Below are positions 6,617-8,984 of a stretch of 64,000 bases of DNA, piece by piece; within the stretch, counting starts at the first letter, position 1, and every line of letters starts with the position of its first letter. The stretch covers positions 64,001-128,000 of the forward strand of contig CAVTRY010000006.1 of NCBI GenBank assembly GCA_963737265.1, in the 5' to 3' direction. Source of the DNA: an uncultured delta proteobacterium. GTDB lineage: Bacteria; Myxococcota_A; Polyangia; Fen-1088. Position numbers and translations under genes: made by a program. The notes below the pieces were generated by a model. The model made no database searches, had not been told where the DNA came from, and was given only the letters and a program-made list of their open reading frames with translations.

Positions 6617-7425
6617 GCCTAATCGACTTTCACTTGCGCGAGCCCGTGTGCCTCGGCAAACGGCGCCGCGACGAACACCGCCGCGAGCGCGTCGAGGTGG
6701 ACGCAGCGCCAGCGCGGGTCGTGCGCGAGAACATCGATGGCACGGCCGAGAATTCCCCGCTCGATAAGTAGCGCGGGGATGTCGTCGGACCGCGCATAGT
6801 CGATGCCCAGCGGAATTCCCCAATCGGCCTCGCCACGCCACAGCTTGCGGATCCCGGCGACATAGCGCTCGAAGGTCTCTTGCGAATTGACTTCGAGTCG
6901 TGGATCCATGAACAGCTTGTGCTCGGGCGCCGCATGCGCGATGCACACGCCAGCTTGCCCCAGATTGAAGGCCGCAATCCGCTCGGGCATGTCTGGCCTG
7001 GCCAGGAGATCACAGGCTTCGTGCGCGTACCATTGCCGGCGCTCGCCGAAACCCACCGTCCTGCCCTCGCCGGCCCACGAATACAGGGTGCCGGAAAGAG
7101 CGGCGAGGCCGACCAGGGCGATCGCGACGAGAAGTCCAAGGTGCGCCGCGGGTCGCAGCTTCGCCGTATCGCGCGGGCGGCGCGTTCGGTGTGTGCGCCT
7201 GAATTTGACCGGCGCGGCGGATACGGCGCGGGTGGCTTCGATGGCGTCATCGAAGGTCCGCGCGATCACAATGGCCGCGACCAGGGCGAAAAGAGCACTG
7301 TTTCGCGTGGCCTGCCACCCAAGATAGAACGATGCCGAAAAAAGCAGCAGGCGATATAGGCTGAAGCGACCACGCCGCACAAGCCAGGCGAAGCTGACCA
7401 TCCCGAGCGCCAGCACCACCAGAAA

Positions 7426-8004
7426 GGGTGCCTCCCTGAAACGGGGGCCCCAGCCGGGGGCTCGGTGAGGTAGCAACTTCTGGCGGAGTGCCGCCGAAAA
7501 CGCAGATCTGGAACAGCGAGGAACGGAGAAACAGAGACAGGATGACTTTACTGGGCAAATTATCGCCGCCTGCATCGAAGTCCACCGTCACCTCGGTCCC
7601 GGGCTGCTTGAGTCGGCCTACGAGCACTGCCTGGCGCGCGAGCTAGGCCTGCGTGGATTTCGCACGCAACGTCAGGTCGCGATTCCTCTGCAGTACAAAG
7701 GCATTGACCTCGACTGCGGCTATCGCCTCGACCTCATGGTGGAAGGCCGTTTGGTCGTCGAAGTCAAGGCGGTAGAGCAGTTGCTTCCTGTCCACTTGGC
7801 ACAGGTCATTACCTATCTCAAGCTCCTACGACTGCCGGTGGGCCTGCTCGTCAATTTCCACGTCCCCGTACTTCGCGAGGGTCTCCGCCACCTCGTCAAC
7901 CCAACCCGTGATCCCTCTGGTCCTCCGTTCCTCCCTGTTTTTCCCTCCGATCCCACCTGCGCGGGGCGAGGTGAAGCCCCAGCCCCCATTTCAGGGAAGC
8001 ACCC
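7426..8004. mobile_element. Non-autonomous TIR element (MITE-like, 579 bp) carrying a GxxExxY gene
   Basis: Left TIR gggtgcctccctgaaacgggggc (7426-7448) matches the reverse complement of the right TIR 7982-8004, gggtgcttccctgaaatgggggc, at 21/23. It is flanked by the exact direct repeat caccagaaa at 7417-7425 and 8005-8013. No transposase ORF. Confidence 0.9.
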
Positions 8005-8026
8005 CACCAGAAATGCGAGCAGGTAG
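7508..8026 (+). CDS. GxxExxY protein (PD-(D/E)XK nuclease superfamily)
   Basis: The frame upstream of the listed 7736 ORF reads DDFTGQIIAACIEVHRHLGPGLLESAYEHCL...GYRLDLMVEGRLVVEVKA...GLLVNF. There is no in-frame ATG/GTG/TTG between the TGA at 7466 and position 7736; CTG at 7508 is a candidate start. The stop lies outside the element. Confidence 0.85.
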   Translation: MEQRGTEKQRQDDFTGQIIAACIEVHRHLGPGLLESAYEHCLARELGLRGFRTQRQVAIPLQYKGIDLDCGYRLDLMVEGRLVVEVKAVEQLLPVHLAQVITYLKLLRLPVGLLVNFHVPVLREGLRHLVNPTRDPSGPPFLPVFPSDPTCAGRGEAPAPISGKHPTRNASR

Positions 8027-8333
8027 GGATTGTTCACCCCGGCGATCGCGATGAAATCGCCGATACTTTTTAGCTCGCCGATTGAGCAACTGCGCGGCGT
8101 ACGCGGCGAGGACGAGCGGACCAGACCGGTTCGGAACGGGATCCGGCGTGCCGGGGCTGGGATCACGTGGACCTCCGGGTTGAGCCGTCGTCGTGAAACC
8201 GGGTGATGACCGAAATCAGCATGGGGCGCTCGCCGCGCGCATCATCCCACGCCGGGTGGCCCGGCCAAGAACTTTGAAGCCGCGTTTTGTGAGGGCGGGT
8301 AGGGTGTCGGCAATTCTCTTTGCAGGGCCGCCT

Positions 8334-8381: not shown

Positions 8382-8984
8382 GTGGATAGGACCTGTTCCC
8401 GCCGCGAACGCCAGCATTGGTGTCCTTCCGTGGTGTTTATTATCCTCTTCTTTCTGGTCCGGACGGCCAATGCCAGCGACGAGGAGAAGATGCCAGCGCC
8501 ACGCTTGGCGACGTTTTTCGGGCGACTCCTTGCCTACGATACCAACCTCAAGGACCGGGCGAAGGGACGCATCGACATCGCTGTCCTCTATCGGCGCGGG
8601 GGCACATCGCCGGAGGATCTCGCCGCGATGACGAACGCTCTCCAGACCCTCGAGCTGACGAGGATCTTGGACCTTCCGGTCAAGACCTACAGCGTCGCCG
8701 TCACCAACCTGGCGGAGTTGGAAAAGGCGGTCGAGCTGCACGGCATCGATGCGTTCATCGTCAGCCCCGGCCTCGAAGGGCAAACCGCGCTCATCACCCA
8801 AGTGAGTGAAAGAAGGAAGGTCATCGCCCTTGGCTTGGCCAGCGCTCAGGCGCGTGCAGGCTTCGCCGTCGCGGTCTATCTTGAAAACAAGAAGAGCAAA
8901 ATCCTGGTGAACCTGAGCGCGAGCAAGCTCAAGGGCGCCGCGTTCAGCAGCGACCTGCTACGGCTCTCGGAGGTCATCCCGTGA
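8382..8984 (+). CDS. YfiR/DUF4154-like periplasmic protein
   Basis: Signal-like N-terminus; RLLAYD and the C-terminal KILVNLSASKLKGAAFSSDLLRLSEVI are typical of this family. Confidence 0.7.
   Translation: MDRTCSRRERQHWCPSVVFIILFFLVRTANASDEEKMPAPRLATFFGRLLAYDTNLKDRAKGRIDIAVLYRRGGTSPEDLAAMTNALQTLELTRILDLPVKTYSVAVTNLAELEKAVELHGIDAFIVSPGLEGQTALITQVSERRKVIALGLASAQARAGFAVAVYLENKKSKILVNLSASKLKGAAFSSDLLRLSEVIP

Follow-up and report, generated by a model that had tools for sequence, protein, structure and literature searches.

Bacillus cereus has a mobile insertion cassette (MIC) known as MIC231. Cassettes of this kind carry a passenger gene, and their activation is ascribed to a related insertion sequence (IS) in the same genome, which would supply the transposase. 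Here, we describe a 579-bp element at positions 7426–8004 of a 64,000-nt stretch of DNA from an uncultured delta proteobacterium (GenBank assembly GCA_963737265.1, contig CAVTRY010000006.1, positions 64,001–128,000 of the forward strand; the whole stretch is called the window below), which carries a gene for a GxxExxY protein and lacks a transposase. Its terminal inverted repeats (TIRs), target duplication, further copies and IS relatives argue, with a probability that we put at roughly 85%, that it is one copy of a non-autonomous ISKra4-group element moved in trans, with the GxxExxY gene as a passenger.

MICs and MITEs (miniature inverted-repeat transposable elements) are defined in the pertinent part of the ISfinder/ISsaga description (PMC3129680). 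Like both, the element combines IS-type TIRs, a target duplication and many copies with the lack of a transposase and the presence of a related IS in the same genome. Unlike the IS231-derived MIC, its parent would be an ISKra4-group IS, and its passenger is a GxxExxY gene with an inverted repeat of its own and no stop codon within the element. No ISKra4-derived MIC or MITE with GxxExxY cargo was found in the literature, which was represented mostly by titles and abstracts.

The ISKra4 group belongs to the Mutator-like prokaryotic transposases, for which the sections of Guerillot et al. (2014, PMC3942029) on these families give a length of 18–39 bp for the inverted repeats and of 8 or 9 bp for the direct repeats, and 3' ends with a terminal C. 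The same sections report these IS families from several phyla, mention circle junctions for the related IS256 and ISLre2, and describe some ISKra4-group members as inserting 13–17 bp upstream of sigma-A promoters. As in the ISKra4 group and its relatives ISLre2 and TnGBS described there, the element has inverted repeats (23 bp), direct repeats (9 bp) and a terminal C, and, as in those members, a preference for sites near promoters, in this case 16 bp from a −35-like box. Unlike ISKra4 ISs, it has no transposase and is IS-derived only at its ends, over 23 bp on the left and about 55 bp on the right.

A third comparison concerns the intervening sequences (IVSs) of 23S rRNA that bear an open reading frame (ORF). 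The relevant passages of Warrier et al. (2016, PMC4990558) describe the IVS of Coxiella burnetii as 428 nt long, with its ends paired in a 28-bp stem, an S23p ORF inside the loop and tandem repeats ahead of the start; it is excised by RNase III, and where it came from and how it moves are said there to be unclear. The cassettes described below resemble ORF-bearing IVSs in unit size (~430–500 nt), in stem-forming terminal repeats (25–45 nt, compared with 28 bp in Coxiella), in an ORF of ~120–150 codons in the loop, in tandem repeats near the start, in the lack of a promoter of their own and in the decay of the ORF. They differ in that the ORF encodes a PD-(D/E)XK protein instead of the four-helix-bundle S23p, and in their location, which is between protein genes or within IS ends instead of rRNA.

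GxxExxY proteins (PF13366) form a large, patchily distributed family with a nuclease fold. Steczkiewicz et al. (2012, PMC3424549) list the function of PF13366 (PDDEXK_3) as unknown, and a bioRxiv preprint describes a GxxExxY-domain gene that adjoins a reverse-transcriptase gene; the passages on the family in these two sources draw no link to a mobile element.

Results

The element and its ends

The window is part of a genome of 6.55 Mb in 25 contigs, called G000 here, with its contigs designated by C numbers. The features at the locus are listed below, the plus strand being the sense strand of the cargo gene.

6619–7425, minus strand: C-terminal part of the host gene, a membrane-protein remnant, 52–63% identical to orthologues in which the site is uninterrupted
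7417–7425, no strand: left copy of the target duplication, identical to 8005–8013
7426–8004, plus strand: putative non-autonomous ISKra4-type element (MIC or large MITE), 579 bp, without transposase
7426–7448, plus strand: left TIR, 23 bp, 19/23 identical to the ends of an IS on contig C20 and 22/23 to those of the metagenomic ISs L132 and L133 (see below)
7508–7510, plus strand: start-codon position of the cargo gene, CTG here, ATG in 27 of 31 full-length copies
7508–8026, plus strand: GxxExxY reading frame, leaving through the right TIR into host DNA and ending at TAG (8024–8026)
7512–7536, plus strand: 5' arm of the inner repeat (25 nt), situated within the gene's first codons and 88% complementary to 7915–7939
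7544–7888, plus strand: PD-(D/E)XK domain (PF13366 / TIGR04256), Pfam match over residues 13–127
7915–7939, plus strand: 3' arm of the inner repeat, just past the domain
7951–8004, plus strand: right-end shell of ~54 bp including the right TIR (7982–8004), homologous to the right end of a metagenomic ISKra4 IS
8005–8013, no strand: right copy of the target duplication
8005–8085, minus strand: short upstream part of the host gene, where orthologue homology ends

The two 23-nt TIR arms (7426–7448 and 7982–8004) are complementary at 21 of 23 positions (91%), and a degenerate pattern made from them has just two matches in the 64-kb window, one on each strand, where 100 dinucleotide shuffles give an expectation of 0. 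Both ends of the element finish in C. A direct repeat of 10 nt abuts the two ends (7416–7425 and 8004–8013); one of these bases is the last of the TIR, which happens to coincide, so that the true duplication measures 9 bp (7417–7425 and 8005–8013). Neither the ORF list nor profile searches disclosed a transposase inside the element, and GxxExxY is the sole family matched. An earlier note on this DNA had proposed a 579-bp segment with 23-bp TIRs (21/23), an exact 9-bp duplication and a GxxExxY gene as the only cargo (now seen as PF13366 and TIGR04256 matches and nothing else), and the element agrees with that description in each respect.

Removal of the element together with one copy of the duplication rejoins the minus-strand frame of the host gene, as the note had stated; it had overlooked that this gene is itself a remnant. 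Orthologues of the host gene are continuous across the insertion point in six congeners (G001, G002, G003, G008, G010 and G012), and so is an intact paralogue in G000 (C16:58750); in all of these the site is empty, with the two halves of the host protein adjoining. The full-length orthologue in G008 is a membrane protein of 556 aa (L070 1224–2894), of which the window gene lacks ~265 N-terminal residues. Because orthologue homology stops near 8085, the host gene was already truncated. A plus-strand ORF begins at 8382, beyond the end of the host-gene homology.

Copies in the genome

Comparison of the element with G000 by BLASTN gave 44 high-scoring segment pairs, made up of 31 full-length copies and 13 partial matches, the latter at 8 further loci that are broken or interrupted, for ~39 loci in total. 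The full-length copies are 92.7–100% identical, and every one of them has TIRs at both ends and carries the GxxExxY gene, none having other cargo. Perfect 9-bp duplications, all different, flank 29 of the 31; one of the remaining two has a 10-bp repeat and the other, an old copy, a repeat that agrees at 7/9 positions. Further copies with different duplications, which the earlier note had proposed to look for, are thus numerous in this genome. Two copies equal the consensus exactly, and four represent an older 93% subfamily with a 10-bp deletion.

Contigs from four soil-metagenome runs carry the element at ~60x, compared with 2.6x for a flank, and also contain other flanks; they do not bridge the window insertion site in either its filled or its empty form, and cover one short piece of flank. 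Judged by its copies and their duplications, the element is mobile and has recently been active.

Two copies are each split by a 1428-bp IS (C23:162554–164571, L002; C20:14118–16133, L003) with a 438-aa DDE_Tnp_1 transposase, where the flanking element sequence overlaps by 11 bp in what looks like an 11-bp duplication.

An ISKra4-type transposase as the probable mover

A search of G000 for the TIR, allowing up to 5 mismatches, returned 77 sites, of which 73 belong to copies of the element and 2, with 5 mismatches, are at chance level. The last 2 are the ends of a 2120-bp IS (C20:66979–69098), which is single-copy in G000, has its own 9-bp duplication and carries 23-bp inverted repeats that are identical to the TIRs of the element at 19/23 positions. 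Its transposase (466 aa) matches the ISKra4 family model NF033572 with 256.9 bits (cut-off 205), and plasmid homologues bear the PGAP label 'ISKra4 family transposase'. A second ORF of 141 aa follows the transposase gene (L001 3037–3462) and has no match in Pfam, NCBIfam, PADLOC or PHROGs.

Scanning the metagenome contigs with this transposase yielded 172 candidates and 127 relatives, from which 80 loci were kept. Two of these, L132 (2043 bp) and L133 (2148 bp), are ISs in which both ends are 22/23 identical to the element TIRs and the transposases are 73–74% identical to that of the C20 IS; furthermore, element positions 526–579 match L133 2094–2148 over 55 bp at 92.7%. These ends and the 55-bp match indicate that an autonomous IS with the same ends exists, and that the shell of the element comes from its lineage. 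The earlier note had suggested a look for an autonomous IS with the same ends; one with related ends is present in the same genome (19/23), and two with nearly the same ends are present in metagenomes (22/23). None of the 80 loci contains a GxxExxY gene. The transposase responsible would be that of the C20 IS or of a closer relative that is now lost or unassembled.

Two other kinds of ISKra4-like IS in G000 were rejected as partners, having only the first 5–6 TIR bases in common with the element. One lies at C7:242277–243649 and is split between two frames. The other, of 1783 bp, occurs at C2:48036–49818 (L127 737–2519) and at no fewer than 8 other loci in near-identical form; it scores 177.9 bits, below the family cut-off, and is bounded by TIRs of its own (~24 bp) and an 8- or 9-bp duplication.

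Target choice

Alignment of the flanks of 30 independent sites revealed a TTG-rich hexamer 7 bp past the duplication and hence at a distance of 16 bp from the element's end. For scoring, a −35 hexamer was placed 15–17 bp from the junction and a −10 hexamer 16–18 bp further on. Promoter-like sites with at least 8/12 matches adjoin 8/30 right ends and 3/30 left ends, compared with 0.35% of 20,000 random genome positions, and a −35 hexamer with at least 4/6 matches adjoins 13/30 right ends and 8/30 left ends, compared with 8.4% of random positions. At C17:62354–63520 (L004), one 9-bp target is occupied by two copies of different sublineages in head-to-tail order, with a −35-like box 7 bp on, and the duplication is therefore present three times.

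By these counts, insertion upstream of −35-like boxes is a preference, not a rule. The joint match in duplication length, ends and target habit is, in this analysis, the strongest mechanistic evidence for an ISKra4-type origin of the movement.

Related elements in other genomes

Two congeners, G003 and G004, contain many derivatives of ~300–330 bp, in which the core of the gene (element positions 181–454) is deleted and the outer ends are different. Homology between the G000 element and these derivatives covers the cassette (positions ~67–536), not the outer ends, and no target duplication is visible for them. They form a MITE family (for example L008 1450–1765, L018, L019, L021 and L022) with outer TIRs of ~34 bp, and are often nested in another palindromic repeat. 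The C20 transposase as query found no ISKra4 transposase in G003, G004, G005, G009 or G018, whose assemblies are fragmented and 74–99% complete, and the ISKra4 family model found nothing in the fragmented assemblies of G003, G004, G005 and G009.

Intact cassettes occur in G005 (L006 1444–1974), where the cassette is 91% identical to the element, and in G009 (L007 1487–2014), where it is 82% identical. Both have kept part of the ISKra4 shell and have lost the TIRs; the G005 cassette looks like a tandem pair from which the abutted ends were deleted.

The inner inverted repeat and the GxxExxY family

Within the TIRs lies a second, inner inverted repeat that brackets the gene and that the earlier note had missed. 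RNA folding predicted a structure that is closed by the inner as well as the outer repeats (z = −4.86).

One further GxxExxY gene of G000 shows such a bracket on its own. All but one of the GxxExxY loci found in this genome lie in an element of the 579-bp type; the exception (C22:198320–198790, L037 1021–1491), located between a comM/yifB-like gene and recA, has no ISKra4 ends and is bounded by a 33-nt, 94% inverted repeat that extends from right after the ATG to just before the stop. Of 12 genomes of the genus, G000 included, 7 have this recA-upstream cassette, 3 have kept a remnant of it and 2 lack it. Among the orthologous loci (L082–L092), the cassette is decaying in several congeners: G011 retains a C-terminal piece and the right arm, G007 no more than the right arm, and G001 a few bases. 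When the 7 orthologues are aligned on a terminal stem of 25 pairs, 93.2% of the cells are paired, a value reached by 0/500 shuffles, and 6 pairs are changed on both sides, a number reached by 11/500, although these figures are not probabilities because the sequences are related. Slid controls gave 31–63% paired cells.

GxxExxY genes are patchy in the phylum, with matches in 28/201 genomes; the 27 positive genomes other than G000 have 1 to 9 matches each, which are not copy numbers, compared with the ~39 loci of G000. The survey of loci in other genomes covered the inner bracket. A bracket score of at least 16 was obtained for 16/31 GxxExxY loci from 22 genomes of the phylum, measured against a null in which the upstream window of one locus was set against the downstream window of another (95th percentile 11; maximum 28, a value due to arm repeats that some loci share). 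Among the first 23 loci, the bracket exceeds every shuffle in 14. The arms are mostly built of short tandem repeats.

Plasmid-borne GxxExxY genes from Bacteroides, Bernardetia and Sphingomonas (Bacteroidota and Alphaproteobacteria) have arms of 25–30 nt in 3/3 cases, and all three cassettes occupy short gaps between co-directional genes. On the Sphingomonas parapaucimobilis plasmid NZ_CP155749.1 (L131 1474–1902), the bracketed gene starts 33 bp after fabD and ends 2 bp before fabG, in a row of fabD, fabG, an acyl carrier protein gene and fabF that are all annotated on the same strand. Mismatches among 484 arm pairs from 15 loci comprise 9 of the G:U type, 8 of the A:C type and 20 others, and so do not discriminate RNA from DNA pairing. 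Rfam returned nothing at the window locus but one chance-level row (E 0.93) and no match in 20 other GxxExxY loci, and TIGR02436, the four-helix-bundle IVS protein family, had no match over its cut-off in G000. As scored here, an inner bracket is typical of GxxExxY genes, being found in about half of those surveyed and in several phyla.

The earlier note had further suggested that the layout of TIRs and duplication might explain the scattered distribution of GxxExxY genes. This holds only within G000, for all but one of the loci found; an exact-match scan of the genome contigs for the TIR pattern gave one other record, a solo end with no partner within 8 kb, and the surveyed loci of other genomes, in which no search for outer TIRs or duplications was made, have in many cases the inner bracket in common.

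These brackets raise the question of where the cargo came from. The inner repeat may delimit a second, independently mobile unit, a cassette that moves by itself into transcription units; the 579-bp element would then stem from a short ISKra4 MITE that captured such a cassette or received it by insertion. We consider this account, which concerns the origin of the cargo and is compatible with mobilisation in trans, rather unlikely. In its favour, brackets occur without ISKra4 ends (upstream of recA, at 16/31 loci of the phylum and at 3/3 plasmid loci), cassettes fill short gaps between co-directional genes and homology between G000 and G003/G004 spans the cassette and not the outer ends; the compensatory changes in the 7 recA-upstream orthologues and the turnover at that locus (7 present, 3 remnant, 2 absent) also fit. 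However, the recA locus shows no target duplication or defined insertion footprint, its pattern can be accounted for by one old gain followed by deletions, no recent identical cassette copies were seen outside IS-type shells, and 15/31 surveyed loci have no clear bracket.

Two established classes were rejected for the locus. It is not a 23S rRNA IVS, as the window copy lies in a protein-gene remnant and has no Rfam match, nor a homing endonuclease gene in an intron or intein, as no intron family was found and the copies lie at unrelated sites with target duplications.

The cargo gene and its product

The cargo protein matches PF13366 with E 2.2e-40 (138.1 bits, cut-off 22) and TIGR04256 with E 2.6e-41 (140.6 bits, cut-off 35). 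Its reading frame has no stop inside the element, and the window copy has CTG in place of the ATG start, two features that the earlier note had missed; the metagenome contigs have A at 7508, that is, an ATG start. With its start codon lost, the window copy is dead as a gene.

Residues G30, G32, E35, Y38, D75, E85 and K87 are invariant or nearly so in 26 sequences, and the element consensus has both the GxxExxY motif and the catalytic Asp and Glu-x-Lys positions. Over the domain, the ratio of non-synonymous to synonymous substitution rates is lowest in the comparison with G009 (0.12), followed by those with the 93% subfamily (0.15) and with G005 (0.28); on these ratios, the protein is under purifying selection between lineages. 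A confident AlphaFold2 model (predicted local distance difference test, pLDDT, 93.5) found only generic PD-(D/E)XK nucleases, both with Foldseek against the PDB (best E 0.03) and in a wide comparison with VIA-align (best Z 7.7). The structural matches of this model, which include Cas4, Hjc, restriction enzymes and the CinB nuclease domain, point to no specific function. Searching PDB sequences with the protein gave no match at E up to 1, neither a solved structure nor an activity assay came to light, and no PADLOC defence model or PHROGs entry matched it.

Despite this conservation, only 16/31 full-length copies retain both an ATG and an intact domain, the gene being broken in the other 15. 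A single frameshift, caused by a 1-base deletion at alignment column 383, outside long homopolymers, is common to 8 copies at 8 sites. Copies with this shared frameshift kept transposing, and the nuclease is therefore dispensable in cis. From the state of these copies, the cargo is a passenger, not required in cis for movement.

The earlier note had offered, as its second option, that the nuclease contributes to its own mobility, which could happen through cutting of the donor or the target, as by TnsA in Tn7, or through repair-mediated copying and would make the element partly autonomous. This option gains no support here and we judge it improbable. In its favour are the intact catalytic positions of the consensus, the purifying selection on the protein, the presence of the gene in 31/31 full-length copies with no other-cargo copy in G000, and the 16 intact copies, which could act in trans. 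The shared frameshift and the 15 broken genes weaken it, as do the ORF-less derivatives that multiplied in G003 and G004. Duplication length, ends and target preference are moreover all of the ISKra4 DDE type, and the gene is in 0/80 of the metagenomic ISKra4 ISs of this lineage. That dosage selection for a host benefit of the nuclease, for example in defence or repair, keeps the copies and explains their number is very improbable, since, purifying selection between lineages notwithstanding, half of the copies are broken, the insertions lie at unrelated sites with duplications and interrupt at least one gene, PADLOC and PHROGs give no match, and no promoter was found inside the element.

Proposed route of mobilisation

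Trans-mobilisation by an ISKra4-type transposase, with the GxxExxY gene as passenger, thus remains the preferred reading of window positions 7426–8004. The earlier note had given a non-autonomous DDE-type element moved in trans as its first option, and this option draws support from the copies and their duplications, the empty sites, the ISKra4 ISs with related ends and the targeting. Under this reading, a promoter-less stem-loop cassette that relies on outside transcription would have been captured between IS ends. A transposase supplied in trans would bind the two 23-bp TIRs and, cutting with a 9-bp stagger, transfer the element to a new site, preferably ~16 bp upstream of a −35 box of the sigma-70 type. 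The likely role of the inner stem, by analogy with the 23S rRNA IVS, would be that of an RNA stem that is processed in the same manner.

Several points weigh against this reading. A clear promoter-like motif adjoins only 11/30 sites, and the window copy itself has none. No sigma-70-type promoter was found inside the element. An IS with near-identical ends was not found in the G000 assembly, and the ends of the C20 IS differ from those of the element at 4/23 positions, so that cross-mobilisation by it is not assured. The flanks of L132 form no duplication, for which reason that contig may be chimeric, and no convincing promoter lies at its ends. Intact copies could supply the nuclease in trans, which would allow it a helper role, and the case for mobilisation is drawn wholly from sequence.

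G000 shows one clear way in which a GxxExxY gene multiplies, namely as the passenger of what appears to be a promoter-proximal, non-autonomous ISKra4-type element, and it offers a clean, high-copy natural example of promoter-proximal targeting attributable to ISKra4-group transposases. The inner bracket links the GxxExxY family by architecture to the ORF-bearing 23S rRNA IVS, and the question of IVS origin and mobility, as raised in the passages cited above (PMC4990558), becomes testable with a defined cassette and a defined candidate transposase.

We tentatively extend this to the family. GxxExxY genes in general might be promoter-less stem-loop ORF cassettes, with arms of 25–45 nt, of the same architectural class as the 23S rRNA IVS, which would settle between co-directional genes, live off host transcripts and spread when enclosed by the ends of various transposons; the structure that the arms form, as a DNA cruciform or an RNA stem, might be what the nuclease acts on in order to keep or copy the cassette. 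This generalisation is speculative, and if true it would offer a concrete path by which IVS-like elements, whose mobility is unexplained, could move, and by which GxxExxY genes could have become patchy in distribution and many-copy. The family-wide stem-loop bracket, together with capture between transposon ends, is the part most worth following up.

A GxxExxY repeat in another family of the phylum

Outside the genus, a genome from another family of the phylum (G050) contains a GxxExxY repeat of ~697 bp, for which no TIRs, duplication or transposase were resolved. Four copies are 95–99% identical and two are at 74–88%; the loci include a tandem arrangement (L052 1310–2338) and two further copies (L095 398–1094 and L096 784–1480), and the repeat has a sharp right boundary.

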